Positions 12,598-58,331 of a stretch of DNA of 64,000 nt are shown in pieces. The notes beneath the pieces were generated by a model. That model saw only the letters and a list, made by a program, of their open reading frames with translations, was not told the DNA's origin and made no database searches. The position numbers and the translations under genes are program-made. Position 1 is the stretch's first letter. Each line of letters opens with the position of its first letter. The stretch is taken from NCBI GenBank assembly GCA_964372665.1, contig CAYJRE010000001.1:5941-69940 (forward strand). Direction: 5' to 3'. This stretch comes from an uncultured archaeon (GTDB lineage Archaea > Iainarchaeota > Iainarchaeia > Iainarchaeales > VGJJ01).

Positions 12598-12629
12598 GGG
12601 TTATCCTCTTTCTCTTTTATTTTAAGGAG

Positions 12630-12704
12630 CGACCCCGGAGGGATTTGAACCCTCGACCTCCGGGTCCGAAGCCCGGCACTCTATCCAGACTAAGCTACGG
12701 GGCC
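12630..12704 (-). tRNA. tRNA-Arg (anticodon UCG), CCA not encoded
   Basis: Reverse complement folds as a cloverleaf: acceptor stem GGCCCCG/CGGGGTC, anticodon loop CUUCGGA, T-arm GGGTTCAAATCCC. Confidence 0.8.
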
Positions 12705-12737: not shown

Positions 12738-12891
12738 TGAAAACCCCTCTGCATAAGCCTTCGCAGTGGCCCGCCGAAACGGGCCAGCTACTGGGCCGTA
12801 GCACCTATTTTTCAGTTGGCGTATGTAGGGTTGCAAACCCTACGATAGTCTCTCGCAGTGGCCCGCCGAAACGGGCCAGCTACTGGGCCAA
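12738..12891. repeat. two tandem units, each a short GC hairpin followed by a conserved 37-nt element TCGCAGTGGCCCGCCGAAACGGGCCAGCTACTGGGCC
   Basis: Unit hairpins are GAGGGGTTGAAAACCCCTC and GTAGGGTTGCAAACCCTAC. The 37-mer is an exact repeat with an internal GGCCCG-CCGAAA-CGGGCC hairpin. It lies immediately 3' of the tRNA-Arg locus. Confidence 0.5.
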
Positions 12892-18736: not shown

Positions 18737-19033
18737 ATGGAATTGCATTTTTTTTCGGCGGATCCTCGTTCGCTTGTGTTGTCGATGCGCGAGACCCTGG
18801 ACGCGATTCCGCGGTTGCGGGGGAAGGGATTCGTGGGTTTTTACGGCGACACCCCCAATGAGGCGATCATTCGGTTTTGGCGGCGTCACGGGGCGGAAAT
18901 CACGGAATCGCCCGCGCATTCGCGGCGTGCGGCGAGGCGTTTTTATGAGTCGATGATGAAGGAAGAGGGGTTCTCTCCCAAATACGCCGACACTGCTATT
19001 CGGAGAATCCTCTTTCGCTTTCCTGGAGCGTGA
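18737..19033 (+). CDS. hypothetical protein
   Basis: Internal Met of track ORF 18572..19033. Arg-rich. No motif. Confidence 0.3.
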   Translation: MELHFFSADPRSLVLSMRETLDAIPRLRGKGFVGFYGDTPNEAIIRFWRRHGAEITESPAHSRRAARRFYESMMKEEGFSPKYADTAIRRILFRFPGA

Positions 19034-19068
19034 AACGAGCGTATCAATCCTTGAATCAAGCGATGTTC

Positions 19069-19225
19069 ATTCGAACTTTTTAGAAAAAAGTTCGATCAAA
19101 AAGGTCTGATACCTCGCCCTTTAGGGCGACATTCGTCGCCCATTGTTTGGCGAGCGAGCACGCGAGCAAGTGTCGTTCATGCCCAATTGGATACCGTGGC
19201 CTTTAGGCCACGGAGGAGGTCATTC
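19069..19225. repeat. ~157-bp hairpin-rich repeat, family C, copy 1
   Basis: Identical to 30659..30816 as read by eye (no alignment was run). Contains hairpins TTCGAACTTTTTAGAAAAAAGTTCGA, CGCCCTTTAGGGCG and GTGGCCTTTAGGCCAC. Confidence 0.75.
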
Positions 19226-19648
19226 GTGTGTGCGCGGGGAAAGTTGGCGTACCAATTCTCCCACTTTTTTCTTGATTTGGTCTTTCGTCTCTTCCAACAC
19301 GTTCCCGTATCCGTGTTCCGGGTCGCGTATTTTCCAATAAATGGTTTTACCTGAATTTTCAACGAAATCCGGAACATTCTCTTTATCCGTCATCACCACT
19401 ATTTTGTCCGCGGCATGGACCATTTCTTTCGTGACCTGCTTCATTTTGTTTTTCGACAAATCGCATCCTTCTTTTTTCATCATTTCCACGATTCGGGAAG
19501 GGATTTTTTCTCCTTCGAAATACCCCACATGCGTCCCCGCGCTTGTGGCGGAATTGTTTTTGCTCATTTTGTTGAACAAGGCTTCCGCGATCTGCGAGCG
19601 CCGCATGTTCGCGCGACAGATGAACTGGATTTTTGTTTGCTGAGCCAT
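19220..19648 (-). CDS. low-molecular-weight protein-tyrosine phosphatase / ArsC-type arsenate reductase family
   Basis: CRANMRRSQ P-loop (CX5R-S) near the N-terminus. 142 aa. Confidence 0.7.
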   Translation of the reverse strand: MAQQTKIQFICRANMRRSQIAEALFNKMSKNNSATSAGTHVGYFEGEKIPSRIVEMMKKEGCDLSKNKMKQVTKEMVHAADKIVVMTDKENVPDFVENSGKTIYWKIRDPEHGYGNVLEETKDQIKKKVGELVRQLSPRTHE

Positions 19649-19649
19649 T

Positions 19650-20828
19650 TTAAATCAGCTTTCCCTTTCCGGTGCTCACAATTAGTACGCGTTTGCCTTT
19701 GGGGATATCTTTCTTGTGTTGCAATAGCCAAGCCAATCCGGCCAATGCCGAGGGTTCAAAGCGCATTCGCTGATTTAAGGCGATGTTGGCAGCGCGGAGG
19801 ATCCACTCGTCGTGTATCTCGTGGATGCCGGATTTTTCTCCTAACACACCGGCGCGTCTCATTTGGCTAATAACATGACTTTTTTGAGTTTGAGTTTCCT
19901 CTTTTACGGATTCAGGTAAGTGTGGAGCTGATAGCATGGAAGCGATGCTTCCGATAGGGGATGTGACCCCGATTAGGTTCACGCCTGATTGCAGCGTACG
20001 CGGATTTCGCAGACGTGGGTCTAATTGTCTGACTCGCTGGAGTTGATCGTAGTAATGCTCAAATAAATTATTGAATAACTGTCCAGAACCATATGGCACA
20101 ATGATGTAATCTGGTTTTGTGTTCAGTACTTCAAACGTCATCCAGTCATAGAATGTTCGGCCTAACTCGTTTGCCATTCTTCCCCGCGTTAAATCGATTC
20201 CATTCGGGTTGCGTGTCCGTTCAAGTATTTCGTCGGAAGTCAGCGCCCTTTTGGCTAAATCGGTTTCATATACATCCACATGATGTTTTCGAAGTTCGAC
20301 GATGATCTCTTCTGGGGTCCGGGTTGAAACCAAAATATGGGGTTTGGGTAATCCAAAAGCATGCATCATTTCTCCCAGTGCGATGGCAGCGTTCCCACTT
20401 GAAACCAACGAAACCGCCGGCAGTCGTCCATTGATTTTCCCTTCGGCTTTGGCTTCGAGCATTCTCCCGTACATGCGCGCGATTTCCCATGCCATTCGGT
20501 CTTTGTGAGTACCTGTGGGGTTGAGAGACTCATCCTTGACTAAGATTTCAACCCCTCGAAATTCAGGAAGCCTTAATCGTTTCGCTGGGGTTGCCGGAAA
20601 TTTGGGCCGTGCAGGTGGAAATTCAGGTCGCCGAGGGTTGAAATCGGAGTGGGTGCGTTGGACCCATTTGAGTAGTGCTCGCGCGCCTTCTTCATTGGGG
20701 GTAAGTTCGCCTTTGGGCCGTCCCATGGCTGCGCTTCGGTATCGTTCGAATCGGCGGAACTCCCGTGTCGTCATCCAAAAGGGTTTTGGTAGGGTTGCTC
20801 GACGTATTCTGCGGTGAATCGAAACCAT
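19650..20828 (-). CDS. PLP-dependent beta-family enzyme, threonine synthase-like
   Basis: ESLNPTGTHKDRMA contains the PLP-binding lysine in the tryptophan-synthase-beta / ThrC-type context. 392 aa. Confidence 0.6.
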   Translation of the reverse strand: MVSIHRRIRRATLPKPFWMTTREFRRFERYRSAAMGRPKGELTPNEEGARALLKWVQRTHSDFNPRRPEFPPARPKFPATPAKRLRLPEFRGVEILVKDESLNPTGTHKDRMAWEIARMYGRMLEAKAEGKINGRLPAVSLVSSGNAAIALGEMMHAFGLPKPHILVSTRTPEEIIVELRKHHVDVYETDLAKRALTSDEILERTRNPNGIDLTRGRMANELGRTFYDWMTFEVLNTKPDYIIVPYGSGQLFNNLFEHYYDQLQRVRQLDPRLRNPRTLQSGVNLIGVTSPIGSIASMLSAPHLPESVKEETQTQKSHVISQMRRAGVLGEKSGIHEIHDEWILRAANIALNQRMRFEPSALAGLAWLLQHKKDIPKGKRVLIVSTGKGKLI

Positions 20829-20857
20829 GGTTGGAATAATTCGTTGAGGTTAATAAG

Positions 20858-20981
20858 CCATTTTCACTGACACTCTCGCGTCCGAAGCCCCTGCCTTTCA
20901 GGCAAGGGTAAAGGCGTAGCCGTTTGTCAATCGCGCTTTCTCCAACGCCATTTCAACAGGAGCCCACGCCTTTAGGCGTGG
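20858..20981. mobile_element. MITE-like element, family A, copy 1 (~124 bp, imperfect TIR CTGACACTC...GAGTGTCAC)
   Basis: Near-identical (about one difference in ~124 bp) to 53067..53190. Internal hairpins CCCCTGCCTTTCAGGCAAGGG and CCCACGCCTTTAGGCGTGGG. Confidence 0.75.
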
Positions 20982-20991
20982 GAGTGTCACG

Positions 20992-22563
20992 TTACAGCAA
21001 GTCTTCCGTCTCTTTCCTGTTTTTCTCTTGGTTTTCTTCGAATTCGAGGCCGGCCTTTTCGAGGCTTCCTTCGTGCTTGGATGGTTGCGAGTAGCGTTGC
21101 CTGACTTTGAAGAACGTGGGAAAATTAACGGCTTCTCCCACAATCAACCCTTCTCCCACTTTCAAGGAGGTAATCATCTGCAGCGCATCGCTGGATATTC
21201 CTTCCGCGCTTTCCCCGATGTGTTTCAGGTCATTGGGGTTCGTGATGCGTAATAGAAAATGGGTGTTGCACTGTGAGAGTGTGGTCGTGTCCAAGTGCGT
21301 GGGTCGCTGGGACACGAGGCATAAGCTCACTCCGAATTTTCGTCCTTCGCGTGCGATCGTGCGCATGATGCTTTTGGTGGCGCTTTCTTCCTTGCTCGAG
21401 TATTGCGGAATGAAGTTGTGCGCTTCTTCCAAAATGATGGCGGTGGGGGGAGTTTTTTTTTCTCTTCGCGAGTAAAAGATGCGATGTGCCAAATATGCCA
21501 CAATCACTTGTTTTTTTTTCTGGTGTATGATGTCGCTTAAATCCACGATCGTTAGTGTTCCAGGTTGCACCAAATCCAAAATGGAAGGATTATCCGTTTT
21601 TCCGAAGAGTTCTAATTCGTCCAGTTCGTGCATCCAGCCGATGAGTGCTTGTATCGTGGAATCTTTCATTTTTTCTTTTTCCATTCCGGATTCGAGCAAG
21701 TGTTGTTTGATATCGTTCAAATCATAGGGTCCGTGTCCCTCTCTCATTTTGTTTTTCAGTGTGGTAATGATTTTGGCTAATTCCCTTCGCTGGGGTGCGG
21801 AAGAGTGGGGGAGTAATGCCCCGAACATCGCGCTTGTTATTTTGGGCACACCAATACGCAAATCGCGTGCCCGGATTAAGCGTGTTTTTCCGGAGAAGTC
21901 CTTGTATTTGTCGTTTGCGGGGGGCTCGGCAAAGCTCGTGTATTCTCCGTGCACATCGAATACGACGATTCCGATTCTGCCGTTTTTTTTTTGGCGTTGC
22001 AATAGTTCTTCGATTAAGCAGGAAATAAAATAGGATTTTCCCGTGCCGGACATTGCGAGGGTCGCGCAATGCTTTTGCAGCAATCGCGTCATATTCAGTT
22101 TTACTTTCACGGGATGGAATTCCAGTTCCCCCAATTCCAGTCCTTTTTCTTCGTCAAACCCGAGGAATTGGATGATGTGTTCGGGTTTGGCGTTCAATAC
22201 TTTGCTTCCTGGGGAAGGGGGAAACGTGGTTCGTTTGATTTTGTTTTCATCCGCGAATATTCCAAGCGGATTGGTTTGTGCGAGCGTGTATTCCCAGTCA
22301 TTCACGGGGAATTGTTCGAACAATTTCGTCCCTTGCGCTTCGAACTCTTTCACCGCGTCCGCGCGCTCAAAATACTTGTTTGTTTTGAGCACATTCGTGA
22401 CCATCCCGATGAGCGTTCCTTCTCCATACGGTATTTCCACGAATTGCCCGCGATGCACTTTTCCGTTGGTGATAACGAAATCCACTTGGGTGGGGGAGGG
22501 TCCTTCGGGATTCGAGACAACTGTTCCAATTTCCACTTCTTTTTCAGGCATATCGTTTATCAC
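20992..22563 (-). CDS. herA: HerA helicase (FtsK/HerA-family ATPase)
   Basis: Walker A ATLAMSGTGKS, Walker B and HerA architecture. Directly downstream of nurA. Confidence 0.8.
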   Translation of the reverse strand: MINDMPEKEVEIGTVVSNPEGPSPTQVDFVITNGKVHRGQFVEIPYGEGTLIGMVTNVLKTNKYFERADAVKEFEAQGTKLFEQFPVNDWEYTLAQTNPLGIFADENKIKRTTFPPSPGSKVLNAKPEHIIQFLGFDEEKGLELGELEFHPVKVKLNMTRLLQKHCATLAMSGTGKSYFISCLIEELLQRQKKNGRIGIVVFDVHGEYTSFAEPPANDKYKDFSGKTRLIRARDLRIGVPKITSAMFGALLPHSSAPQRRELAKIITTLKNKMREGHGPYDLNDIKQHLLESGMEKEKMKDSTIQALIGWMHELDELELFGKTDNPSILDLVQPGTLTIVDLSDIIHQKKKQVIVAYLAHRIFYSRREKKTPPTAIILEEAHNFIPQYSSKEESATKSIMRTIAREGRKFGVSLCLVSQRPTHLDTTTLSQCNTHFLLRITNPNDLKHIGESAEGISSDALQMITSLKVGEGLIVGEAVNFPTFFKVRQRYSQPSKHEGSLEKAGLEFEENQEKNRKETEDLL

Positions 22564-22615
22564 TCATGTTTTGTATTGTTTTAAGGGTTTGTTTGGGAGG
22601 GGTTTCATTTGTGGA

Positions 22616-23758
22616 TTAGAACGGTCTCCGATTCCTTCTCCGCAAGTGGACGCTGTGTCTCCCTATCTTGGAGAATATTTTGTCCGCGACAAGCTCGACT
22701 TCTTCCTGTTTCAGTCCCGCACGCAGGTCTGCTTCGATGAGCACGGAGGGGAAGGCATACTCCTTGTGCAAGTTGCTTTGCGCGTACGCGTACTTGCTTG
22801 CAGTATTCGCATTTTCTGAAATGTTTTTTCGATCCGAAAGGAATTCGATGCGTAGGGGATAATCCCATTGCGAGGGTTTCAAATAGCACGCGTGGATTTT
22901 GGTTGCCCATTCGGAAGGAAAATCCGCTAGGATGGGGTGTTTTCCTGGGTTTTCCGCGTATGGAAAGGCCATGCTGCGTTCTCCCGCGCTCAGCACGTTG
23001 TCCAATAATGGGGCGTCGTGCAATACCTCCTTTTTTTCTTTGTATTCCAGCACGTTTTCATGAATCCATTCGCTCAATCGTGTGGAGCGACTGTCTTCAA
23101 TCGCCCCAATCAGCAGGCAATCGTTTTTTTCGGCCGTTTTGTACAATTGTACAAACTCCTGAATCGTTTTTTCGTATTCTTTTTTGAGTTTGGAGTCGTT
23201 GCTCGGTTTGTCCATGGGGTGTAAGATTAGGCTCCCGTCCAAGAATAGGGCTGTTGGTTTTGTTTTTTGGATTAGCTCTATGGCATTTTGGGTTTCCGCT
23301 TGTAGGCGTGTGAGGGAAACGAATTTGTGGAACTCTTCGCGTTCCAATCCGCTCGTGTTCACAATGGGATCCGGCAGGGAAAAGCTCTCGGGGACATACT
23401 GTGTTTTCACCATTTTTCCTTTTTCGTATGTGAAGCAAACGCCGCACGAGCGGAGCATCATCAAGTCGAGTGCATAAAAGCTCTGGGAAACGAATCCAGA
23501 GTCGACTCCGGCTATTTTTTCGTTGAGCACGTGTTTTTGGATGGGGCATGAGAGCTTTTTTTCTTTCATTTCTCCATTTCCATTGTTCGCGAATTCTTTT
23601 CCGGCTTTCTCTCGGATGGCTTTCCCCATCTGGAGGTGCCTTTTCTGCGTGTTCTGGATGTGAGAAACCACATTCTCGAGTAATTGGAGGAAACCCATGC
23701 TTTCCTCATTGTTTTTGGGGGGTTTAAAACCCAACCGACGGGTCTCCGCCGCATTCAC
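22616..23758 (-). CDS. nurA: NurA 5'-3' nuclease
   Basis: IAGVDSG, ALFLDGSL and LIGAIEDS are NurA-type catalytic Asp/Glu motifs. Operon with herA. Confidence 0.7.
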   Translation of the reverse strand: MNAAETRRLGFKPPKNNEESMGFLQLLENVVSHIQNTQKRHLQMGKAIREKAGKEFANNGNGEMKEKKLSCPIQKHVLNEKIAGVDSGFVSQSFYALDLMMLRSCGVCFTYEKGKMVKTQYVPESFSLPDPIVNTSGLEREEFHKFVSLTRLQAETQNAIELIQKTKPTALFLDGSLILHPMDKPSNDSKLKKEYEKTIQEFVQLYKTAEKNDCLLIGAIEDSRSTRLSEWIHENVLEYKEKKEVLHDAPLLDNVLSAGERSMAFPYAENPGKHPILADFPSEWATKIHACYLKPSQWDYPLRIEFLSDRKNISENANTASKYAYAQSNLHKEYAFPSVLIEADLRAGLKQEEVELVADKIFSKIGRHSVHLRRRNRRPF

Positions 23759-23823
23759 ACAGCCTTAAATATGGAAAACGCATAATTCTCTCATTCAAAA
23801 ATTTTTTTGGGGATTGATTCGGT

Positions 23824-24213
23824 ATGGAAGCCATTATTGAGGTCGAAGAGTTGCGTCAGGACTGGAAGCCTCCTTTTGCCAAGAAGAGGGAAACCAAGTC
23901 TTTTACGTTGAAAGAGGGGGAAACGTTTGAAACCCTGCGGGATGGGGCTCCTTTATTCACGCTTCAATCGATTCAGGGGGACAAAGTACTGGTCCAATAT
24001 AGCCGTCATTATTCGTTGAAAGGGTTCGAGCACCCTACTGAAAGAAAGATTTGGTTGAACATTCATGACCCCAAGAAATTTTCCTCGTTGTGGGAGGATA
24101 ACGGGGTGACTAAAACGGTTACATTGAGGCAAGTCAATGGCGTTCATTCCGACCCTGCCCAATCACCGGAAAACAGAGACGTGACCGAAAACACTGAAAT
24201 CTATCGTCCCTAG
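23824..24213 (+). CDS. hypothetical protein
   Basis: 129-aa ORF with no motif. Confidence 0.35.
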   Translation: MEAIIEVEELRQDWKPPFAKKRETKSFTLKEGETFETLRDGAPLFTLQSIQGDKVLVQYSRHYSLKGFEHPTERKIWLNIHDPKKFSSLWEDNGVTKTVTLRQVNGVHSDPAQSPENRDVTENTEIYRP

Positions 24214-24597
24214 TGCTCAGCTTTAAGCAACTGTTTATTATTCATCATTCGGTCTTTATCGGCATGTATATGGCTTCTCGTCATTCTCGACTAGGGGGGC
24301 GTCGTCTTCTTTCTCCTGAGAATGTGGCTCGCACTCGATTCAGTTTGACGCAACATATTCGTGCGATTAGTCGCTCGGGATTGAAAGCAAGGGATGCGCA
24401 GCAAGCGAGAGAAAAGTCGCTCACCCTCGCAGACTGTTTTAAGGGAATATTAACGCGCTCCAGTCGTTCGCTTTCCCCTGAAAGGAAAAAAATCTACTGC
24501 ACTATTTCGAAAATTTTCGTCTCAGGTCAGAGCAGTTCGTTCGGCTTATGCGCGTACCCAACAAGCTAGCGAGGGAAAGTCGGAATATGCGGCCCAA

Positions 24598-25386
24598 TTG
24601 GTTTTTGCCCAATTTGAAAACAATGTTGTTTCGGAATTTGGCCCAGCAAGGGGGAGAAAATTGTTGGAAATTTGTTATTTTGATAAGTGGCTCGAGCGTT
24701 GGTATGCGAATCCTTCCCCCGACAAAAGCTTTTTCGTGAGCGCCCGAGAAATACTCGAAGTGCTTCATCGGAATAGGCGTCTGATTGGAAAAATCCTCAA
24801 GCGGTATCACGTGCCAGAAGAGAAATGGCAGTATTACTTGGATGAGATTCCATTAATGATGCTTAAGGATATGAAAACATACAATCCAGAAAAGGGGCGA
24901 TCTCTCACCTCTTACATTTACGAGCGGTCCCTCTTTCAATTTTTTGCTCTCCATCGGAGAGAGCGGCGGTCCAGAGAAACGGTTATTCGTGCCACACGCG
25001 TGGAAGAGGATATGAGCGTCCGTGAAGATGTGGTAACCCCTTCCATCGCCGAATTGGTGTCGAGTGCTCGCGATAGTCGACGAGTCCGTCGTGTTTTACT
25101 AGCGCTTCCAGAGCGAGAGCAATTAATCATACGGAGGATTTACTACGATGACCTCGATAACGTCACTGAAACTCCCACGCCCGAAGCCCCTGCCTTGAAG
25201 GCAGGGGTAAAGGCGTCGCAATGATTATTGCGTTTTTTCAAAGCAATCCCGGAAGAAGCCCACGCCTTTAGGCGTGGGAGTTTCACACTCTCACGGGAAA
25301 TGGGTATATCCCGTGAGCGCGTTCGGCAACTTCGAAATAACGCGGAACACCATTTTTTGGAAGCGTGGCGTAGGCAACAAGAGTAG
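24598..25386 (+). pseudogene. sigma-70-family (ECF-like) factor gene interrupted by MITE B1. Region 2-like and 4-like blocks are both present.
   Basis: YNPEKGRSLTSYIYERSLFQFF resembles sigma region 2.2-2.3, and LPEREQLIIRRIYYDDL resembles region 4.1. The ORF stops at a TGA inside the repeat (25224). In the same frame, 3' of the repeat, comes MGISRERVRQLRNNAEHHFLEAWRRQQE*, a region 4.2-like HTH, ending at 25386. Confidence 0.55.
25164..25286. mobile_element. MITE-like element, family B, copy 1 (~123 bp, TIR CTGAAACTCCCACGCC...GGCGTGGGAGTTTCAC)
   Basis: Identical to 55532..55654 as read by eye (no alignment was run). Related to family A through the shared core CCCGAAGCCCCTGCCTT-AAGGCAGGGGTAAAGGCGT...CCCACGCCTTTAGGCGTGGG. 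Confidence 0.75.
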
Positions 25387-25439
25387 CGTCTTTCGACTTG
25401 GCTCACTATTTTATAGGCGCTGTTGTTCCAGTTATCCCT

Positions 25440-28875: not shown

Positions 28876-30618
28876 ATGCGGGATTCTCCTCCTTTGCGGA
28901 TGGAAATCGCCGTTCATCCGCGCAAACCATTCTTTGGTTTCACGAAAAAAGACGCGAATGGATTATGGCACCTGAACGTGCGTTCCTCGCCTCACCAAAA
29001 CAAAGCCAATGCGGAAATTGAAACGGAATGCAAACGCCTATTCAGGGCAGATGTAAAACTAATCAAGGGGCATTCCTCTTCCAAAGAAGTGTTGGAAGCC
29101 GCATTGGATCGTGAAACGCTTGAGCAACTGATTCTCGAAAACGTCGATTCGTTCAAAAAACAAAAACAAATGCAAAAGCAAATGCAAATATTGCATTGCA
29201 AAAACAAAAAAGAGTTGATACGAAATATGGCAAAGACATATGTGGACGCGGTCAAATACATGATTCGCATTCATTTTGAGATCAAAGGAATCGTAGACAA
29301 GCCCGATATTGTGGGAGCGGTGTTTGGTCAGTCGGAAGGGCTGCTTGGAGAAGAGATGGATTTGCGCGAGCTTCAAAAGAAAGGTCGCGTGGGTCGCATT
29401 GAAGTGAATGTGCGACAAGAAGGGGGAAATACGGTGGGAGAAATAATGGTTCCCACTTCCATGGATATGGCTGAAACGAGTGTATTGGCCGCCGCGATTG
29501 AAACCGTGGATAAGGTGGGTCCGTGCGAGTCCCGGTTTACTACGAAAAGCATTGAGGATGTGCGCCAAAACAAGCGCGCTGAGATTGCGAAACGGGCAAA
29601 AGAGCTTCTCGCGCGCTTGAAGATGGAGCAGAGCCCCGAAATAGACACGCTCACGGAAGAGATTCGGGCAGATGTGCGGGCGGGAAACCTGATCGAGTAC
29701 GGTCGTGATCATTTGCCCGCGGGTCCGGAAGTGGATTCCTCGGATGAAGTGATTGTTGTGGAAGGGAGGGCGGATGTTGTCAACCTCCTCAAGCATGGCA
29801 TCAAGAATGTGATTGGAATGGGCGGTTCCCGAATTTCAGGGGACATCATCAACTTGTCACGGAGGAAAACAATCGTGTTATTCGTTGATGGCGATCGGGG
29901 TGGAGAATTGAATGCGCGCAAATTGCATCAGATTGCTAACGTGCAATTCGTAGCGGTTGCGCCCGATGGAAAAGAGGTGGAAGAGCTTCCCCAAAAGGAA
30001 ATCATTCAATCCTTGCGGCGAAGGGTTCCTGTTCCGGAATTTCTTTCCTCGATTGGCGTTTCCGAACAGGAGTCGGGGAGAGGGATGCGTTTTCGTGCCG
30101 CTCGAGTGGGAATGCCTCGACCGTTTGAGCGTTCCCCACAAGGCATGCTCTCGTTTGGTCGGGGTCGGGGTCCTCGCCTGCCGCGCGAGGCCTTTTCGAG
30201 CATGACTGGAAACAGGGACCGCGGAATGATGATTCATAAGCGATTTGGGGTGGGGGGTGCTCCGGGTCGCATTTCTCCGTTTGGGGATAAAGCCTTGCCC
30301 ACGTTTGAGGCGCCGGTCGAGACCGCTGTTTTGGATTCACCCGAAAATGCCTCTGAATACGCTTCGTTTTTGGAGCGAGTGAAAGGAAAGAAGCAGGCCT
30401 TGTTTTTGGATGCCGATAAGAAGGAGATTGACCTTGTTCCAGTCAAGGATATGGTTTCTAAATTAAAGGACGCCAAGTCTGTTCATACGATTGTATGCGA
30501 TGGCATTATTACGAAGCGTTTGATTGATGCCGCTGCCAAGGCCGATGTGCAACTGGTCGTGGGAATCAAGCGGGGAAAGACTGGAGAAAGTAAAGTAAAA
30601 ACGTTGGTGGTGGGGTGA
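28876..30618 (+). CDS. dnaG: DUF167 (YggU/UPF0235)-like N-terminal domain fused in frame to an archaeal DnaG-type TOPRIM primase
   Basis: Residues ~9-90, MEIAVHPRKPFFGF...PHQNKANAEIETECKRLFRADVKLIKGHSSSKEV, match the DUF167 pattern. It continues without a stop into YMIRIHFEIKGIVDKPDIVGAVFGQSEGLLGEEMDLRELQK and the TOPRIM block VIVVEGRADVVNLLKHG...VDGDRGGE. An RG-rich C-terminal tail follows. Confidence 0.7.
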   Translation: MRDSPPLRMEIAVHPRKPFFGFTKKDANGLWHLNVRSSPHQNKANAEIETECKRLFRADVKLIKGHSSSKEVLEAALDRETLEQLILENVDSFKKQKQMQKQMQILHCKNKKELIRNMAKTYVDAVKYMIRIHFEIKGIVDKPDIVGAVFGQSEGLLGEEMDLRELQKKGRVGRIEVNVRQEGGNTVGEIMVPTSMDMAETSVLAAAIETVDKVGPCESRFTTKSIEDVRQNKRAEIAKRAKELLARLKMEQSPEIDTLTEEIRADVRAGNLIEYGRDHLPAGPEVDSSDEVIVVEGRADVVNLLKHGIKNVIGMGGSRISGDIINLSRRKTIVLFVDGDRGGELNARKLHQIANVQFVAVAPDGKEVEELPQKEIIQSLRRRVPVPEFLSSIGVSEQESGRGMRFRAARVGMPRPFERSPQGMLSFGRGRGPRLPREAFSSMTGNRDRGMMIHKRFGVGGAPGRISPFGDKALPTFEAPVETAVLDSPENASEYASFLERVKGKKQALFLDADKKEIDLVPVKDMVSKLKDAKSVHTIVCDGIITKRLIDAAAKADVQLVVGIKRGKTGESKVKTLVVG

Positions 30619-30658
30619 AGAATTCGCCCAACCTCCTTTTTTTTGTTTTAACTTTTTT

Positions 30659-30816
30659 GATTCGAACTTTTTAGAAAAAAGTTCGATCAAAAAGGTCTGA
30701 TACCTCGCCCTTTAGGGCGACATTCGTCGCCCATTGTTTGGCGAGCGAGCACGCGAGCAAGTGTCGTTCATGCCCAATTGGATACCGTGGCCTTTAGGCC
30801 ACGGAGGAGGTCATTC
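30659..30816. repeat. ~157-bp hairpin-rich repeat, family C, copy 2
   Basis: Same sequence and orientation as 19069..19225. Confidence 0.75.
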
Positions 30817-30856: not shown

Positions 30857-31279
30857 TTATCTTTTCCGTTTCCATTTTGGGCTTTTGATGTTTAGTATGC
30901 TTTCTTCGATGGGGACCATGATTCGCCAGCTTCGGTATAATACCATTCCTACGATGAAGGTGCAGACCCAGAAGAACACCATGGCGATTTTTGGGACGAG
31001 TCCGGAAACGATTTGCAAATCGGTTAACCGGTATTGGTTAGCGTGGAGCAATACGCCAAACGCGTAGTAGGCTTGGGTTTGGCAGTCTTGTATTCGTACG
31101 GTTCCGGAATTGGATGCATCGATGCAGGCGTGGACCGCTTTCACATTTTCCCATGAGTCGAGCATGCTGGTGAGGCTTTGCACGAGCATGAGTAATGCGG
31201 CGATCATCAGGAATGCGCCGAATAGCTTGGGCAAGTGAACGTCTCGAGAGCCCAGCCGAAATAACAACACGCGTCGCAT
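30857..31279 (-). CDS. small membrane protein (hypothetical)
   Basis: 140 aa with two or three predicted TM helices. Confidence 0.35.
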   Translation of the reverse strand: MRRVLLFRLGSRDVHLPKLFGAFLMIAALLMLVQSLTSMLDSWENVKAVHACIDASNSGTVRIQDCQTQAYYAFGVLLHANQYRLTDLQIVSGLVPKIAMVFFWVCTFIVGMVLYRSWRIMVPIEESILNIKSPKWKRKR

Positions 31280-34400: not shown

Positions 34401-34659
34401 AGAAGTCACCGGTGTTTTAGAAGGAAAGGCGCATACTCAACCTATTTTTTCGTGGGACGCTGTGAAGGATGAATTGGTGCGAAACAATACCCCTATCAAG
34501 TATTTGGATCGGGTGTCCGCTCTTTCGGGGAGAAGTGTTTCGGAAATCGAGATGGAATTTAAAAGGAGAGAGCGATTTTTACAGGGGTTGGTGGACCGCA
34601 ATGTGCGCAGCCTTAAGACCGTTTCCATGTTAGCTGAAGAGTTTGTGGGAGGAGAATGA
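31417..34659 (+). CDS. type IV pilus assembly ATPase (FlaI/TadA family) containing an intein
   Basis: S/P-rich N-terminus, Walker [11 protein letters not shown], Asp box [11 protein letters not shown]. The His box NTGHDG...[11 protein letters not shown] is split by a ~471-aa insertion with LAGLIDADG-like motifs. Confidence 0.8.
32821..34233 (+). mobile_element. intein with LAGLIDADG homing-endonuclease domain inside the pilus ATPase. Position 1 is Met, not the usual nucleophile (Cys/Ser/Thr)
   Basis: Block A-like [23 protein letters not shown] blocks [12 protein letters not shown] and [15 protein letters not shown]. Block [22 protein letters not shown] followed by +1 Cys. The host junction aligns with the intein-free paralog, TGHQG/CLGT. 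Confidence 0.65.
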
Positions 34660-35864
34660 TGCCGGCAGAAGATTTCTCGAGTATTAAATCTCGGATTGAA
34701 GAGAAGAAGCCCACGGACCGGAATGTTTCCTCCGCGAATTCGATGCCGGAGAAGCCTGTTGATCTGTCGGATAAGCAGATTGATTTGATTGTAGAGCGGA
34801 TGAAGCATAAGTACAAGCAGGAGGGGCTAGAGTTTAATGAAGTGGAAGGGCAATTGGGCGAGCTCAAGGATATTATTTCGGGAACCGGTCAGAAAGGCGT
34901 GGAAGTCGGAGTCGATGCCTTGCGGGAGGGGAAAAATGCGTTCATTCGTATTCTGGGTCATTTGTATTTTTCGTTGCATGGTTTTTTTGAGTGGGTGAGC
35001 AAGCGAATCGAGACGTTTCCCCAGATGAAGACCTTGAACTATTATTTGTATTCGGCGAACATGTCGTATTCGTCCAAGCAGTGGGTCGCGATTGTTTCGG
35101 TGGTTTCTGTTCTCGTTTTTATTGCTGTTTTTTCGTTTGGTGAACTTGCTTTTCTTCTGCTTCGTTTCTTTGGTCAGCAACGGGGTCTGACATTGAGCCC
35201 TTTGGTGGTTACTCTTTCGTATGTTCTTCCGGTGATCGTCGCCTTGTTTTTTTCGGTAGCGGCGGTTGTGGTGGGGTTGTTGGTTCCAAAAATGAACGCC
35301 GAGAGGCGCGGGGACGAATGCTCGACCGAGTTGCCTTTTGCATTGCGGCACATGGCCACCGAGTTGCGCGCGGGAATTGGTTTGTATAAGACGATTCAGA
35401 CGATTGCCAAAGCGGATTACGGGGTGTTGTCGGAGGAGTTTACTCGTGCGATTTCAGAGATTGAAGAGGGCACCGACACGAAGGATGCGCTGCGCCACTT
35501 TGCGGCGCGCACGCAGTCTCGCCCCCTCGCAAACGCGTTGCGGCACATTATTCGGGCGTTGCGCACAGGAGGAAATTTGTCAGAGATCATGGGCAGCATC
35601 GCAAGCGATGTGAGTTTTGATTTGCGGATGAAAGTACGCGAATACTCGGAAAAGCTTAACTTTTTCGGTGTCATTTTCATTTTTATGGGAATTGTGGCTC
35701 CTGTTTTTGTGGGGGTGATGGGCGCCATCGTGAATGGGGGGTTGCCGCTGGGTTTTTCCATTCCATTGACTCCCCCCGTGATTATGATTTTTTACTTTCT
35801 GATTATGCCCACACTCTTGGGGGGGTTGGCGTATTATTTGTATGTCACGCAACCCCGGGTGTGA
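34656..35864 (+). CDS. pilus membrane platform protein, single T2SS-F domain (TadB/TadC/FlaJ-like) #1
   Basis: About eight predicted TM segments and a central cytoplasmic T2SSF-type domain ([20 protein letters not shown]...[12 protein letters not shown]). Confidence 0.65.
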
Positions 35865-37388: not shown

Positions 37389-38522
37389 ATGATGTTCCCC
37401 CTGGCCTCTTTCCTTTTTTCATTCGTTGGGCTCGTTTTAGCCACGTATACGGATTTCAGGGACCGCACGATTCCTAATTGGATTTCGGTTGGATTAGGAG
37501 TCATGGGGTTGGGGTTGGCCGCCTTTGAGTACGTACAAACCCAAAATCTATCCAATTTGGTTTTGGTGGTGGGGGTGACGCTCGTTACATATATTGTGGC
37601 GTATTTGTTTTGGCGGTTGGGCGCGTGGTCGGGAGGAGATGTTAAATTGTTCGCGGGTTTGGGAGCGTTGAATCCCGTGAATCCGTTTGTGTTGGGTTCG
37701 TTCTTTTCGGTTTCGTGGATTTGGGGCAATCAGGAATTGTTTCGTCCGAGCATGTTGCCTTTTTTCATGCTGAATTTGTTTATTCTTTCGGTAATCATGC
37801 TTTTGCCCTATACGGCTTTTCTTTCTGTTTCGGTATTGAGAAACAACGAAAGAAGGAACGAGTTCTTCTCAATAACCAAGAAAAGTGTAGTTGAATCGTT
37901 TGCCTACGGCCTCTTGGTTTTGCTTTTCACTCGATTGGTGGAGGGGGTGGGGCTTCCCATTTGGATGATTGTTTTGTTGATGGTCGTTTCCGCGTTTCTT
38001 CCGCGAATGGCACGGATTTTTTTGGTTCTTCTCACTGTCTTGCTTGGTTTTTTTTCCATTGTTTCATTTTCCTCGTTTCCTTTTTTGTTTGCTACCTTTC
38101 TCATTATTGGTCTTATTTTTTCCTGGTACAAGTTTGCGCAGCGTCACGTTTTAACGCGGATAAAAAAAATTTCGGATTTGCAGGAAGGAGACATTGTGGG
38201 AGAGATTTTTCGTGTCCGGGGGGATAAAATCGTGCGCGAGGAACCCGTTTCGTTCAAAAACATTATTAAGGCCGGGCTCCAGCGGGATGTACCGGGGTTG
38301 ATGTCCGTGTTCCATGCCCAAAATGATATCGTCGCGTCACCTCGTCAGGCGGCGGGGTTGTATTCCGAGCAAGTTGCGCGATTGCAGGGGGAAGTGAAAA
38401 AAGGGAGTTTGGAGGACAGGGTGGTGGTGAAGGCCTCCTCCCCCTTTGCGCCGGCCGTATTATTGGCCTATGGGGTATTGAATTTGGTGGGGGATATTCC
38501 TCTCGTGTGGTGGTTTGGGTGA
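37389..38522 (+). CDS. A24-family prepilin peptidase (PibD/FlaK/TadV-like) with long C-terminal extension
   Basis: First catalytic Asp in TYTDFRDRTIPN and second in the conserved GGGDVKLFAGLGA block. About six TM segments plus a ~140-aa soluble C-terminal region. Confidence 0.7.
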   Translation: MMFPLASFLFSFVGLVLATYTDFRDRTIPNWISVGLGVMGLGLAAFEYVQTQNLSNLVLVVGVTLVTYIVAYLFWRLGAWSGGDVKLFAGLGALNPVNPFVLGSFFSVSWIWGNQELFRPSMLPFFMLNLFILSVIMLLPYTAFLSVSVLRNNERRNEFFSITKKSVVESFAYGLLVLLFTRLVEGVGLPIWMIVLLMVVSAFLPRMARIFLVLLTVLLGFFSIVSFSSFPFLFATFLIIGLIFSWYKFAQRHVLTRIKKISDLQEGDIVGEIFRVRGDKIVREEPVSFKNIIKAGLQRDVPGLMSVFHAQNDIVASPRQAAGLYSEQVARLQGEVKKGSLEDRVVVKASSPFAPAVLLAYGVLNLVGDIPLVWWFG

Positions 38523-52430: not shown

Positions 52431-53003
52431 TTAGATTATGAAAAGGATGAGAAACAAAGGGATGAACATAATAGCCCAAATCCCTTTGTTCCAAGCAAAA
52501 ACTTTGCTTCCGTCCAAAATGAAAAAGGGCAATAGATTGAATAAGGCTAAATACAAGTTAATGGTTCCAACGATTCCCGCGGCTTGTCCAATGTAGGAGG
52601 TTTGGTAAAGCAATGCCACCCCCATCGCCAACAATCCAATCACGATATTCATGAGCGGCCCGGCCGCAGAAATGATCCCGTTCTCTGTCAAGGAAACGCG
52701 TTTTCCGTAAATATAAACCGCTCCCGGCGCCGCAAAGATGAAGCGAAAAAAGAAGGCGACCGCCAACGCAAAAATCAACCCCAAATTCCATGCCCGGTAT
52801 TCGGCCTTGGCACCGAAATAAATCGCCACATATTTATGGGCCAATTCATGTAATAGGAACCCGGTCCCCACCGCCAACGCGGCAATGGCGAGGGCGTTTG
52901 AAAATCCAGTCACGTTTGCCCCTCGTTCGGAGAAGACGAAGGCAAAGGCGGCTGACAACGATATCCAACTGATTAACAAATCGGTTAGCTCTTGGTTGTT
53001 CAT
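52431..53003 (-). CDS. M50/site-2-protease-family membrane zinc metalloprotease (short form)
   Basis: HELAH zinc site in TM context and LDGS (second metal-ligand motif). Confidence 0.6.
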   Translation of the reverse strand: MNNQELTDLLISWISLSAAFAFVFSERGANVTGFSNALAIAALAVGTGFLLHELAHKYVAIYFGAKAEYRAWNLGLIFALAVAFFFRFIFAAPGAVYIYGKRVSLTENGIISAAGPLMNIVIGLLAMGVALLYQTSYIGQAAGIVGTINLYLALFNLLPFFILDGSKVFAWNKGIWAIMFIPLFLILFII

Positions 53004-53066
53004 CCACCAATCAACCAGGAAGCGTTATTTAAGGGTATTATCCTCCGAAAGCGTTCTACATACTTT

Positions 53067-53190
53067 ACTGACACTCTCGCGCCCGAAGCCCCTGCCTTTC
53101 AGGCAAGGGTAAAGGCGTAGCCGTTTGTCAATCGCGCTTTCTCCAACGCCATTTCAACAGGAGCCCACGCCTTTAGGCGTGGGAGTGTCA
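53067..53190. mobile_element. MITE-like element, family A, copy 2
   Basis: Same sequence and orientation as 20858..20981. Confidence 0.75.
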
Positions 53191-53249
53191 CCTGAAAATT
53201 TTACCTAGTTTTAATTGTTTTTCGGTTACCTTGTGAAGCAGGTGAGAAC

Positions 53250-53432
53250 ATGCGTTGGCATCTAGAAGAATCCCGTGCCCAAATTTCGATTGAAATGATT
53301 TTGGTCATGGCTGCGGTCGTGGCAGTTGTTTTGTTATTGGTCACGCAGCTCCAATCCTCGAGCGAGAAGGGCGTCAACAAACTCAAGCAGAAAACCGATG
53401 ACATTTTTCGCGAAATCGAGGAAATCGATTGA
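53250..53432 (+). CDS. DUF361-type pilin (class III signal peptide), 60 aa
   Basis: MRWHLEESRAQISIEMILVMAAVVAVVLLLV. Confidence 0.55.
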   Translation: MRWHLEESRAQISIEMILVMAAVVAVVLLLVTQLQSSSEKGVNKLKQKTDDIFREIEEID

Positions 53433-54865: not shown

Positions 54866-55450
54866 TTACTCCTTTTTTTGGAATTGGCAGGGCATTTTTC
54901 CAGTAATCGTAGTCGCGCACGCGTGATATCCGATTGGTAGCGCGAATAAGGTTTGGGTTCGAGGAGCATGGATTTTGGAGAGGAAAACCGTGCTTCCAAA
55001 TGCGCAGCCGGTGTACGTGTATTCGCCGTACCAATTTGTTCCGTCGATAGGCAAAACGAGCACGTGCGAACACTCATTGAGATAAGAAAGCGAAACCGGA
55101 ATCGTATTCGTATCTAAGAGTGCCAAATACTGGGTCTGTTGGAGCAGAGAAAAACCGGTTTGGTAAACGATGGGGGTGTTTTGTTTTCGGGTTAGGTCAT
55201 CAATGATTCCGATGATGCGGGAATTGATTCTGTTTTTGATTAGCTCGGGTTTCTCATGCAGTATCAGTCCCTCATGCAATCCCGAATCAATCACTTCATC
55301 TACCAAATTTTCCATTTCGAGTCGCTTGAGGGAAATAGCACTGGAATGGATGCTGTCTTCGAATCCGGGCAATGTTTGGAACTGATGGATAGTAACGAGG
55401 AGTTGCCCCACGAGAAAAAGAAAGAGGAAACTTGAAAACCCTTTAGTCAT
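54866..55450 (-). CDS. pilin-like protein
   Basis: MTKGFSSFLFLFLVGQLLV. Confidence 0.45.
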   Translation of the reverse strand: MTKGFSSFLFLFLVGQLLVTIHQFQTLPGFEDSIHSSAISLKRLEMENLVDEVIDSGLHEGLILHEKPELIKNRINSRIIGIIDDLTRKQNTPIVYQTGFSLLQQTQYLALLDTNTIPVSLSYLNECSHVLVLPIDGTNWYGEYTYTGCAFGSTVFLSKIHAPRTQTLFALPIGYHACATTITGKMPCQFQKKE

Positions 55451-55531
55451 GCCCGAGTTTGTTTTTTGGAAGAGGTTAAAAAGCTAGGCAAAATTTTTTG
55501 GGGTGAGGGAGGGGGTGATGATTTTTTTTTT

Positions 55532-55654
55532 CACTGAAACTCCCACGCCCGAAGCCCCTGCCTTGAAGGCAGGGGTAAAGGCGTCGCAATGATTATTGCG
55601 TTTTTTCAAAGCAATCCCGGAAGAAGCCCACGCCTTTAGGCGTGGGAGTTTCAC
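55532..55654. mobile_element. MITE-like element, family B, copy 2
   Basis: Same sequence and orientation as 25164..25286. Confidence 0.75.
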
Positions 55655-56014: not shown

Positions 56015-58225
56015 TTATGTTTCGATTTCGGCTGCAGCGGCTGTTTCGATTTCGGCTTTGGTCGCGGCTCCACCTAGGATTCCGCCCGCACTTTGGGCGG
56101 TTTCATCCACTTTTTTTTCTAATTCTTCGGCTCGTTCCTCGAGTTCTTGGGCTTGTTTTTCTATTTCGGCTTGGGCTTGTCGGTCTTGGGTTCCCTTTCC
56201 GGCTTCCCGCAATAGTCGAGCGGTTCGGTCGAGTTTGTGGGCCGCATGCCTCCATTTGGCAATGTTTTGGACTTCTTGTCCCTTATTGAATCCGAGGACT
56301 TTTCCAATTCCGTAGAAGAAATCATTCTTTTTCTCTTCTTCAAATTGGTCTGCCGCTTGGGCTTTTTCAGCCGCCGTGACTAATTCATCGGTCGCCGTGC
56401 CCACGATGGCCACTCCTTCTGCATCCTCCAAATAGTCGGATAACCTGGAAATGTCATCGATGGCATCTACTTCGATCGCTTGTTTTCGGGCTTTGCTGAG
56501 CTTGTCTTTCACCACTTCGAGCCGGCACACCCGTTCCACGTGTTCCGTAATGTGTTCTCGGATTTTTTCTCCGGTTGTTTGGCTTTGGCATTGGCTCCAT
56601 TGGCGCCGCGCAAACTTGAGGGTGCGCTCCGCGTGCTCGGAACATTGATTCTGTCCCTCTTCCATTTGTTCGCAAATCTGTTCGAATTGGTCTAATTGGA
56701 ATTGGGCTTGTAATTCGCACATCGTGCTCACTTTTTCTTCGATGTCTTCGAACGGATTGAACTCGGATTGTTGGCTTTGGCAATCGCTTTTGTATTTGGT
56801 TGAGTCAAAGGAGCCGGTTTCGCGGTCGCAATAATCCATGGGTTCCAAGTGTCCCCCGCCTCCAAATCCGGGCCCTCCCCCAAATCCTCCTCCGAACCCA
56901 CCGGGTCCGCCGGGAAATCCGCCGGGTCCCCCACCGTATTGTTCAGGTCTCCCCCCTCCGAAACCACTGGGTCCACTTGGATAGGGTTGGGGTCCTTCAT
57001 ACGGTCCAGGTCCAAATCCTGGGGGGGGATATTGTTGCTGACCTGGGTAAGGTTGAGGTCCGCTTGGATATTGTCCGGGTTGCGATACCCCTGGGAATCC
57101 TCCACTCGGATAATTGGGGTCGTAGGTTTGGTAAATCGTCACGCCTCCTGTTCCCGGGCTTCCTCCGCTTCCTCCATCGGGCGGAGGCTCTCCGCCACCG
57201 CCGCTTCCTCCTTCGGGCGGGTAATAAGGGCGTTGGGGATAATTGTTCTGCCAGTCTTGTTGATTCCATTGTTGGTTTTGTTCCCATTGTTTTTTTTCCC
57301 ATTCTTTTCGTTGCGCCTCGTTTTTGACTTCGCGCTCGCAGATGCGCTGCGCGTCATCGATTCGGTTATTGCACTGGTTGCTCATTTGTTTTTCGAATCG
57401 TTCTTTTTCCTTTCCCAATTGCTCTTGGGCGCGTTCCTTACATAATGCAATCACGTTCTCTTCGGAGGGCGGACAGCTGAATGGGGCATCCTTGGGTTTG
57501 AATCTACCAAAGAGCTCAGGCAGCTTTCCACAGAATTCCTTCACTTTTTCTGCCCGCGAAACCATTTTCTCGAAGCGCTTGCACACTTTCGAGAAGTTCA
57601 CGTTGGTTCCAATCCGCGAAAAGATGTCCTGAACAATCTCGTCCTCTTGGTTATCTAAGCATTTTTGGGTGTATCCGGATAATGTCTCGGGTTCGATCTC
57701 GCTGAACATGGCGCTTCCCACTTGTCCGCGAATGCTGGCGTTGATTACATCATCTTCCCTCAAACCAAAATCGCTGAAGGTAATACTGTTTTCTCTCGGC
57801 AATTCCACTCCCAAATCGCGCTCGTTAAATCCGCCGATTTCTTCAAACGGGTCTTGTCCAAATCCCGGTCCTCCAAATGGGTCTCCGCCAAATCCGGGTC
57901 CCCTGCCAAAACCACCAGGTCCAAAGTCTTGGGGTCCGCCGAATCCGCCGGGCCCGCTTGGGCCAAATCCTTGTCCGCCTTGTCCAGAATCATTCGGTCC
58001 TCCGAATGGTTGTTCTTGCGGGGGAAATCCCCCTTGTTGATTCGGGTCGCTCGGGAAACCGAAGGGGCTTCCCGCGGTTTGCAAACCAGTCGCGGGACTT
58101 TTTCCTTTGTACCAACCAAAGTCGGCAAAGGCAATGGGGATGGCGCTCGCTAATACAGCAAAAACAATCGCCAGCGAAGAGATCTTTTGGAAAGAGTATT
58201 GGGGGTGTTTCATGAGCAAACGCAA
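56015..58225 (-). CDS. large secreted protein with Gly/Phe/Pro/Gln-rich repeats, Cys-rich modules and C-terminal coiled coil (unknown function)
   Basis: Sec-type signal peptide (ISSLAIVFAVLASAIPIAFA). Repeated GGFGGPGFG / GPGGFGGG tracts. More than 20 Cys in paired patterns. Glu/Lys/Ala-rich tail. 736 aa. Confidence 0.6.
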   Translation of the reverse strand: MRLLMKHPQYSFQKISSLAIVFAVLASAIPIAFADFGWYKGKSPATGLQTAGSPFGFPSDPNQQGGFPPQEQPFGGPNDSGQGGQGFGPSGPGGFGGPQDFGPGGFGRGPGFGGDPFGGPGFGQDPFEEIGGFNERDLGVELPRENSITFSDFGLREDDVINASIRGQVGSAMFSEIEPETLSGYTQKCLDNQEDEIVQDIFSRIGTNVNFSKVCKRFEKMVSRAEKVKEFCGKLPELFGRFKPKDAPFSCPPSEENVIALCKERAQEQLGKEKERFEKQMSNQCNNRIDDAQRICEREVKNEAQRKEWEKKQWEQNQQWNQQDWQNNYPQRPYYPPEGGSGGGGEPPPDGGSGGSPGTGGVTIYQTYDPNYPSGGFPGVSQPGQYPSGPQPYPGQQQYPPPGFGPGPYEGPQPYPSGPSGFGGGRPEQYGGGPGGFPGGPGGFGGGFGGGPGFGGGGHLEPMDYCDRETGSFDSTKYKSDCQSQQSEFNPFEDIEEKVSTMCELQAQFQLDQFEQICEQMEEGQNQCSEHAERTLKFARRQWSQCQSQTTGEKIREHITEHVERVCRLEVVKDKLSKARKQAIEVDAIDDISRLSDYLEDAEGVAIVGTATDELVTAAEKAQAADQFEEEKKNDFFYGIGKVLGFNKGQEVQNIAKWRHAAHKLDRTARLLREAGKGTQDRQAQAEIEKQAQELEERAEELEKKVDETAQSAGGILGGAATKAEIETAAAAEIET

Positions 58226-58331
58226 CTTTTCCCCTATATATAAGATTTTTTGTTTGGATTTTGAAGAGAGCCCCCCTCGCCGCCGAGAAAAAAGAGGTAT
58301 TATAACCTATGGAGGCCATTTTTTGGTGGGT

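Follow-up and report, generated by a model that had tools for sequence, protein, structure and literature searches.

Miniature repeats of a DPANN-like archaeal contig are very probably ends-only derivatives of IS200/IS605 elements

Palindrome-associated transposable elements (PATEs) consist of fused IS605 ends with near-terminal palindromes; they have no coding capacity and insert without target duplication (PMC3119063). PATEs can be transcribed, and the HgcC RNAs carry a tetraloop like that of the right end (PMC4615843), while PATEs often encode omega RNAs that are used by TnpB in trans (PMC10055086). IS608-type ends contain subterminal imperfect palindromes with a guide at the 5′ foot of the hairpin and a 19-nucleotide (nt) left linker, and insertion takes place 3′ of a tetra- or pentanucleotide (PMC3597680, PMC7290912). 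Here we describe short repeats in 64,000 nt of an uncultured archaeon (contig CAYJRE010000001.1, positions 5,941 to 69,940; this whole stretch is called the window, and all positions refer to it). The repeats form two related families, A and B, and a third, D1, and we consider it very probable that all three are ends-only derivatives of the IS200/IS605 family, i.e. PATEs. This type of element is well known, and our result mainly classifies and refines. The assignment is carried by the anatomy of the elements, their target motif, one exact boundary within a gene, the homology of the right ends, the covariation of guide and cleavage site, and the near-identity of the copies.

Element boundaries were set by aligning the copies with their flanks and taking the points where identity starts and stops. 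Family A is present on the + strand as A1 (20868–20990) and A2 (53069–53191), each of 123 nt, and family B as B1 (25167–25286) and B2 (55535–55654), each of 120 nt on the same strand. A1 and A2 match at 122/123 positions in the element alignment (98% identity over 128 nt in the repeat search), and B1 and B2 are identical over their 120 nt (100% over 124 nt in the repeat search). An earlier sequence-only reading of this DNA had reported two related multi-copy families, which these four copies bear out; its interval for the first A copy, 20858–20981, holds a real element but lies about 10 nt off. Identity between the aligned A and B varies by region, from 86% (left 50 columns) through 54% (middle) to 94% (right end), which supports the same reading's view that the families are diverged relatives. 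The common hairpin CCCACGCCTTTAGGCGTGGG occurs exactly four times on the + strand of the window, and a scan of both strands allowing up to three mismatches gave 8 matches against 0.01 expected from shuffles. When all perfect hairpins with 4-nt loops were scanned, the GC-rich ones with a TTTA loop were confined to A, B and D1. The A and B elements are too short to encode a transposase, and the open reading frames (ORFs) crossing them are artefacts, as the sequence-only reading had supposed: the tail ...PRLKAWAPVEMALEKARLTNGYAFTLA of the ORF at 20898–21143 is the translation of the A1 minus strand.

All copies share one layout on the + strand. A flanking T(C/T)AC precedes the left boundary; the element itself then reads 16 nt, GAAG and the left hairpin, and, after the interior, G(A/G)AG, the right hairpin, AGT(G/T) and TCAC. 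Copy identity starts directly 3′ of the flank, which is TCAC in A1 (20864–20867), B1 (25163–25166) and B2 (55531–55534) and TTAC in A2 (53065–53068), and ends directly after the element's internal TCAC (20987–20990 in A1, 53188–53191 in A2 and 25283–25286 in B1). The left hairpin has the arms CCCCTGCC / GGCAGGGG and is followed by TAAAGGCGT and the variable middle, and the right hairpin is CCCACGCC-TTTA-GGCGTGGG. In A1 the left hairpin (20888–20908) contains one C–A mismatch and the right hairpin lies at 20963–20982; the right hairpin of A2 is at 53164–53183, and B2 has its hairpins at 55555–55575 (left) and 55627–55646 (right). B1 consists of GAAG (25183–25186), the left hairpin (25187–25207), a central hairpin (25217–25232), a second GAAG (25255–25258) and the right hairpin (25259–25278). 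The left and right hairpins stand in direct orientation, differ by two compensated base pairs and are preceded by the same tetranucleotide, GAAG. With this layout, 20 nt separate the left cleavage position from the left hairpin downstream of it, and the right cleavage position follows the foot of the right hairpin at a distance of 8 nt. When 10 copies from different genomes are compared, nine have TCAC and one has TTAC as the left flank, and all terminate in TCAC.

The right end links these elements to transposase genes. Matches to its exact 23-nt core came from 17 stretches of one-per-species genomes and 8 metagenome contigs, the assemblies being labelled Omnitrophota, Planctomycetaceae, Verrucomicrobia, Clostridium, Hadesarchaea, Aenigmatarchaeota, Micrarchaeia and Methanobacteriota. 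Two loci (L009 and L024) carry the core at most a few tens of nt 3′ of a tnpA + tnpB pair; in L016 the distance downstream of such a pair is about 1 kb, and in L020 the core again follows within a few tens of nt, there 3′ of tnpB alone; in L002 and L014 the C-terminus of tnpB is visible upstream of it. Pfam searches of the core-linked genes gave Y1_Tnp (E-values of 2.4e-38 and 1.5e-35) and OrfB_IS605 with a Cas12f1-like TNB domain, and Y1_Tnp or OrfB_IS605 is present in every protein-coding relative of the right end. The left end of L020 contains a right-end-like hairpin preceded by GAAAG, with TTAC ~18 nt further upstream. Only the terminal ~35 nt of the A/B right end is common to the tnpB-linked elements, and Rfam gave no match at the tnpB-linked loci. 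Plasmid searches returned the right-end core only, in Clostridium, Clostridioides and Halobaculum plasmids, and the genes adjoining two of these matches had no Pfam match. The viral contigs held no match to the right-end core and five to a degenerate left-end pattern, all of them chance matches lacking the hairpin.

Some features of these loci are recorded in their own right. The 23-nt core is 100% identical in assemblies of at least eight bacterial and archaeal phyla (L001–L025), and many matches lie at contig ends, consistent with multi-copy repeats breaking assemblies. On a C. difficile plasmid (L031; NZ_CP020426.2, 538–2534), a Y1 tnpA-like ORF at 538–882, detected by tblastn, is followed by a 479-residue protein (906–2345) with no Pfam match and then by a right-end-like hairpin ending in TCAG; this may be an IS605-type element in which an uncharacterised passenger replaces TnpB.

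Full-length homologues of the miniature elements, 108–177 nt long, were found in L007 (Micrarchaeia), L011 (an uncultured archaeon), L018, L019, L021 and L023. They are 60–76% identical to the window elements in the MAFFT alignment and 71–81% in the parts aligned by blastn, and all six have TCAC both at the left flank and as terminus. The L011 homologue (CAZGDN010000023.1, 5442–5618) also holds a nested 53-nt insertion, which entered between GGTAAA and AGGCGT and has terminal inverted repeats of ~15 nt, TAAAATTTTGTTGTA...TACAACAAAATTTTA. A structure made up of an outer helix, the left hairpin and the right hairpin was tested on a seven-element alignment, in which 95% of the cells are paired, compared to 36–50% with the partners slid. 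Three pairs are changed on both sides, a number matched by 1 of 500 shuffles; in the left hairpin the compensatory double changes are C–G to G–C (L007) and C–G to A–U (L023).

Covariation also connects the guide with the terminus. Directly 5′ of the right hairpin stands a G in 21 instances (~11 families), all of which end in TCAC, and a C in four independent instances that end in TCAG, namely L016, L022, L024 and the plasmid L031. The guides are thus GAAG, GGAG, GAGG or GATG with TCAC and GAAC with TCAG, and there are no G/C discordant instances. Exceptions to the rule are L003 (AAAG with TCAT), the GAAA loci L006 and L008, which lack a TCAN terminus, and the solo palindromes of L012 and L017. 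Because the terminus covaries with the base 5′ of the right hairpin, the terminal TCAC is not a target duplication; this covariation and the unlike flanks of A2, TTAC on the left and TCAC on the right, argue for insertion without target duplication. Fourth-position complementarity between guide and terminus is a prediction of the IS608 guide/cleavage-site rule. IS608 reportedly pairs TTAC with AAAG at the left end and TCAA with GAAT at the right, and the pairs TCAC/GAAG and TCAG/GAAC seen here keep the same fourth-position complementarity.

Copy B1 provides an exact insertion boundary inside a gene. It interrupts a Sigma70_r4-containing ORF (24598–25386, +), which continues in the same frame on both sides and ends with TAG at 25384–25386. 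Because B1 carries an in-frame TGA, the annotated product stops at 25224. When 25167–25286 (120 nt) is removed in silico, a single frame reads ...DDLDNVTLSREMGISRERVRQL... across the junction, and the rejoined stretch is ...RRIYYDDLDNVTLSREMGISRERVRQL.... Pfam finds Sigma70_r4 in this B1-deleted ORF (E = 1.4e-9, residues 167–209), spanning the junction at codon 190, and finds no match in the N-terminal ORF before B1 alone. Distant sigma factors are continuous across the position that corresponds to the insertion. The sole close database relative, P0001, is a 186-residue NCBI protein that ends ...DNVTETPTPEAPALKAGVKASQ inside B1; it is the deposited annotation of the same gene, cut off by the insertion, and so another instance of the spurious ORF ends. 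Apart from this truncated annotation, no close homologue of the protein was found among 5.8 billion proteins, and a search for empty sites in the fetched loci returned none, the matches being the elements themselves and one primase-like gene only. The presence of a protein with a bacterial-type Sigma70 region 4 domain in a clearly archaeal window is an observation of its own.

The third family, D1, follows the same design with another sequence. Its copies on the + strand, 19070–19225 and 30661–30816, are 99% identical, the first measuring 156 nt; the repeat search and hairpin scan gave spans of 19066–19225 and 30657–30816. The flank is (C)ATTC at the first copy and (G)ATTC at the second, the element ends in CATTC, and both hairpins, TCGCCC-TTTA-GGGCGA and CCGTGGCC-TTTA-GGCCACGG, are preceded by GATACC. 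The first copy abuts the stop codon of a low-molecular-weight phosphatase gene (19220–19648, minus), and this stop codon is kept because the element's own TCATTC end reproduces the target.

On the analogy of IS608, a Y1 HUH TnpA encoded elsewhere would bind both subterminal hairpins on the single-stranded top (+) strand. The GAAG at the 5′ foot of each hairpin would pair with a TCAC cleavage tetranucleotide, which is the flank at the left end and the last 4 nt of the element at the right. The element would then be peeled out as a single-stranded circle, with the donor resealed exactly, and the circle would be inserted into single-stranded DNA 3′ of a further TCAC or TTAC, with no target duplication. 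In the sigma-like gene, exact excision of B1 would leave the joint TCAC+ACTCTCACGG. We infer that TnpA acts as the catalyst in trans and that the intermediate is single-stranded, and any transcription of the elements into an omega-RNA-like RNA is likewise inferred. The copies are 99–100% identical and the gene disruption is undecayed; therefore, movement by a transposase encoded elsewhere was probably recent. Two further roles are speculative and seem unlikely: given exact excision, B1 could switch a sigma-r4-type regulator of this small-genome archaeon reversibly, and a TnpB encoded elsewhere could use the element as a stand-alone omega-RNA-like guide and re-cut the empty TCAC site, so that the element is kept in place.

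All six elements (A, B and D1) have their top strand on the + strand, whose GC skew is positive along almost the whole window. As the IS200/IS605 family inserts into the lagging-strand template (PMC3597680), this common orientation on the positive-skew strand fits such insertion. The host looks like a DPANN-type archaeon. The archaeal genes in the window include eRF1, Orc1/Cdc6, HerA–NurA, an archaeal-type A24 prepilin peptidase and an archaeal CCA-adding enzyme; a T2SSF-family (type II secretion/type IV pilus platform) protein is also encoded, and a primase-like gene shares 49% amino-acid identity with one on an Aenigmatarchaeota contig. Around the Orc1/Cdc6 gene (58107–59444, +) the skew is positive on both sides and dips to about 0 at 54–60 kb only, and no skew switch marking an origin was seen within the window.

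The termini of the elements are also complementary to each other. In family B the terminal inverted repeat is 15 nt long, TGAAACTCCCACGCC / GGCGTGGGAGTTTCA; the sequence-only reading, which also gave 15 bp, had included an outermost C...C that is not complementary. The imperfect repeats it described in family A consist of 8 perfect bases followed by positions that pair as G–T only. One difference between A and B within the terminal complementarity is compensatory, and the L019-type homologues have 11-nt complementarity between their termini. The inverted repeat also extends further inward than that reading had recorded, with TAAAGGCGT after the left hairpin being the reverse complement of ACGCCTTTA in the right hairpin. 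In B, nt 1–15 (TGAAACTCCCACGCC) plus TAAAGGCGT account for 24/24 nt of the reverse-complemented right end, and a 26-nt block (CGAAG and the left hairpin) separates the two parts. A left end built in this way is seen in B, A and the homologues alike; it amounts to an inverted copy of the right hairpin that is split in two, and this accounts for the terminal inverted repeats noted earlier. The minimum free energy of the single strand is −41.4 kcal/mol for B (z = −8.2) and −28.6 kcal/mol for A (z = −4.2), and the predicted Y-shaped folds use the split-repeat pairings in competition with the right hairpin. The split inverted repeat is unusual and deviates in form from PATEs, but the mechanism is still tied to IS200/IS605 by the other features. 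That A and B form a distinct PATE subclass, defined by the split inverted left end and by a Y-shaped, REPIN-like fold in competition with the TnpA-binding hairpin, with a possible function of the fold or of an RNA, seems unlikely; an alternative Y-fold of this kind could gate excision.

Several points weigh against the assignment to IS200/IS605-derived PATEs. The terminal inverted repeat of 15 nt in B and 8 nt in A is absent from PATEs by definition (PMC3119063). Neither tnpA nor tnpB is present in the 64-kb window, as judged by tblastn with five TnpA/TnpB queries and by hidden Markov model searches of the ORFs in all six frames. No full-length element with the A/B left end was found, a metagenome scan with a specific left-end pattern gave no match, and the link to tnpA and tnpB is one of the right end only. 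The right hairpin was itself the search pattern, and its invariance therefore carries no information. TCAC on both sides is, taken by itself, indistinguishable from a 4-bp duplication, and the decision between the two comes from a single copy, A2, and from the covariation. Finally, the argument from replication direction is consistent but indirect, as it uses GC skew only, and in an archaeon.

The partly doubled form of the element recalls repeated extragenic palindromes (REPs) and their inverted pairs (REPINs), which would be moved by a domesticated REP-associated tyrosine transposase (RAYT) and not by a TnpA borne on an insertion sequence (IS). Since its left end repeats the right hairpin in inverted form, the element amounts in part to an inverted doublet, and solo palindromes on the same core exist in another assembly. 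We nevertheless find this origin very unlikely, since the left and right hairpins are distinct, stand in direct orientation and each have their own GAAG guide, like IS608-type ends; the core sits at the right ends of tnpA + tnpB elements; no Y1 gene flanked by the repeats is present in the window; and one copy splits a gene, unlike typical extragenic REPs. The solo palindromes (L012 and L017, in the metagenome-assembled genome JAFEGP01, labelled Verrucomicrobia) are 38-nt perfect palindromes, GTGACTACTCCCACGCC-TTTA-GGCGTGGGAGTAGTCAC, with no adjacent tnpB, and the same assembly also has several tnpB-linked copies.

The sequence-only reading had taken the elements for classical miniature inverted-repeat transposable elements, mobilised in trans. 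On that account a DDE transposase from an IS elsewhere would bind the terminal inverted repeats, move the element by double-stranded cut-and-paste and leave TCAC as a 4-bp duplication. The elements are indeed short, non-coding, mobile and non-autonomous; it is the class that does not hold, as they are of the IS200/IS605 type and not of the kind defined by terminal inverted repeats plus target-site duplications. The terminal complementarity is genuine in both families, down to the compensatory difference between A and B, and TCAC stands on both sides in three of the four window copies. The fourth copy, A2, has unlike flanks, however, and the right TCAC also terminates full-length tnpA/tnpB elements, where it covaries with the base 5′ of the hairpin. 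It would be unusual for a DDE element to keep to a strict 4-bp target that is the same in nine of ten copies, drawn from different genomes, and the informative features are the two subterminal hairpins with GAAG before each. The IS with matching inverted repeats that the earlier reading had called for did not appear: no DDE-transposase IS with these repeats turned up in the genome, metagenome, viral and plasmid searches, and the right end is tied to Y1 TnpA and TnpB genes. Taken together, these data make a DDE-driven element highly improbable.

Could the repeats be primarily RNA genes, i.e. small structured RNAs of omega-RNA-like or HgcC-like kind that are kept for their RNA function, with their spread being secondary? 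Their folds are strong, and D1 aligned along the entire HgcC model (positions 1–130; window 19122–19233) at 27.7 bits. In Halobacterium, PATE RNAs are expressed and affect growth (PMC4615843), and PATEs often carry omega RNAs (PMC10055086). The D1 score is below the gathering threshold of 50 bits, and it was the sub-threshold HgcC match only that Rfam returned at E ≤ 10 over 19000–25400, with none for A or B. In addition, just ~35 nt of the right end is common to the tnpB-linked elements, the alignment shows no conserved promoter-like box, and one copy lies within a coding sequence. A primary RNA role is accordingly a remote prospect, and a derivation from IS200/IS605 ends remains the preferred explanation.

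The gene context of the A and B copies varies: one copy interrupts a gene, another occupies a divergent promoter region, and the remaining two are antisense between same-direction genes. A1 lies 1 nt beyond the stop codon of a HerA-like gene (20992–22563, minus) and ~40 nt upstream of the start of a PALP-domain gene (20828, minus). A2 is located between a divergent M50 peptidase-like gene (52431–53003, minus) and a small pilin-like ORF that starts at 53251, and B2 is intergenic, between 54866–55450 (minus) and 56015–58225 (minus). The second D1 copy lies between two convergent genes, 28876–30618 (plus) and 30857–31279 (minus). The sequence-only reading had asked whether the elements sit in one orientation immediately 3′ of genes, as a terminator or REP-like role would have it; although all copies share a strand, they are placed differently with respect to genes, and such a role is not supported. 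Intrinsic terminators or regulatory hairpins, or for B1 an intron spliced from the mRNA, were rejected as next to impossible: the hairpins are GC-rich and A1 and both D1 copies lie directly 3′ of genes, yet placement and orientation are inconsistent, AGTKTCAC and not a T-run follows the top-strand right hairpin, the exon sequences flanking B1 cannot, by inspection, form an archaeal bulge-helix-bulge helix, and the B element is also present in intergenic DNA.

Elsewhere in the window, a large archaeal type IV pilus-like gene cluster extends over ~31400–54000. It includes the T2SSF-family protein (34656–35864), the A24 prepilin peptidase with an archaeal C-domain (37389–38522) and small ORFs with N-termini that resemble class III signal peptides, e.g. 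the one from 53251. An exact 37-nt repeat, TCGCAGTGGCCCGCCGAAACGGGCCAGCTACTGGGCC, occurs on the + strand at 12761–12797 and 12853–12889, 92 nt apart. It adjoins a tRNA-Arg(TCG) gene (12629–12704, minus), has a small hairpin before each copy and gave no Rfam match; over the whole window, Rfam at gathering thresholds returned one tRNA only.

For annotation, the A and B elements matter in that they create false ORF tails and truncate a real gene in the deposited record, and recognising them mends both. The near-identical copies and the fresh gene disruption indicate recently active single-strand transposition of the TnpA type in an archaeon of the DPANN kind, a group whose mobile elements are poorly catalogued. 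The elements predict a tnpA gene, and probably a tnpB gene, elsewhere in the genome. The ends of the predicted tnpA-bearing partner would read ACTC...CGAAG-hairpin directly after TCAC at the left and GAAG-CCCACGCC-TTTA-GGCGTGGG-AGTNTCAC at the right. The 23-nt right-end core, which is covered by no Rfam family at present, together with the guide/cleavage covariation offers a simple handle for IS605-type ends across bacteria and archaea.

The nearest known systems are the haloarchaeal PATEs, i.e. the HqIRS families of Haloquadratum walsbyi (PMC3119063) and the VNG_R0052 PATE RNA of Halobacterium (PMC4615843). They share with the present elements the fused ends, near-terminal palindromes similar to one another, a conserved oligonucleotide at the terminus, the absence of target duplication and near-identical copies within a genome, and the nested inverted-repeat insertion in the L011 homologue parallels the SMR-A elements found in Haloquadratum PATEs. 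They differ in sequence and host, the homologues here coming from Micrarchaeia and uncultured archaea, and in that A and B carry a terminal inverted repeat of 8–15 nt, whereas PATEs are defined as lacking one. In HgcC (RF00062), GAGGAGGUCA follows a 3′ GC hairpin whose loop is UUUA, and D1 ends in a comparable way with CCGUGGCC-UUUA-GGCCACGG-AGGAGGUCAUUC; this likeness is limited by the score of D1 (27.7 versus 50 bits) and by the lack of any match for A and B. With IS608 of Helicobacter pylori and ISDra2, A and B have in common hairpins at both ends, a 4-nt guide at the foot, insertion 3′ of a tetranucleotide, a left cleavage site ~19–20 nt upstream of the left hairpin and a right site a few nt past the right hairpin. 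In contrast to these elements, A and B are without tnpA or tnpB, have a target that equals their terminal tetranucleotide (TCAC), and show additional complementarity between left and right. REPINs and RAYTs, as known from Pseudomonas and others, resemble A and B in the inverted doublet of a palindromic unit and in depending on a Y1 HUH enzyme in trans; unlike them, A and B have no RAYT in sight, and their ends are IS608-like and linked to elements that encode both TnpA and TnpB.

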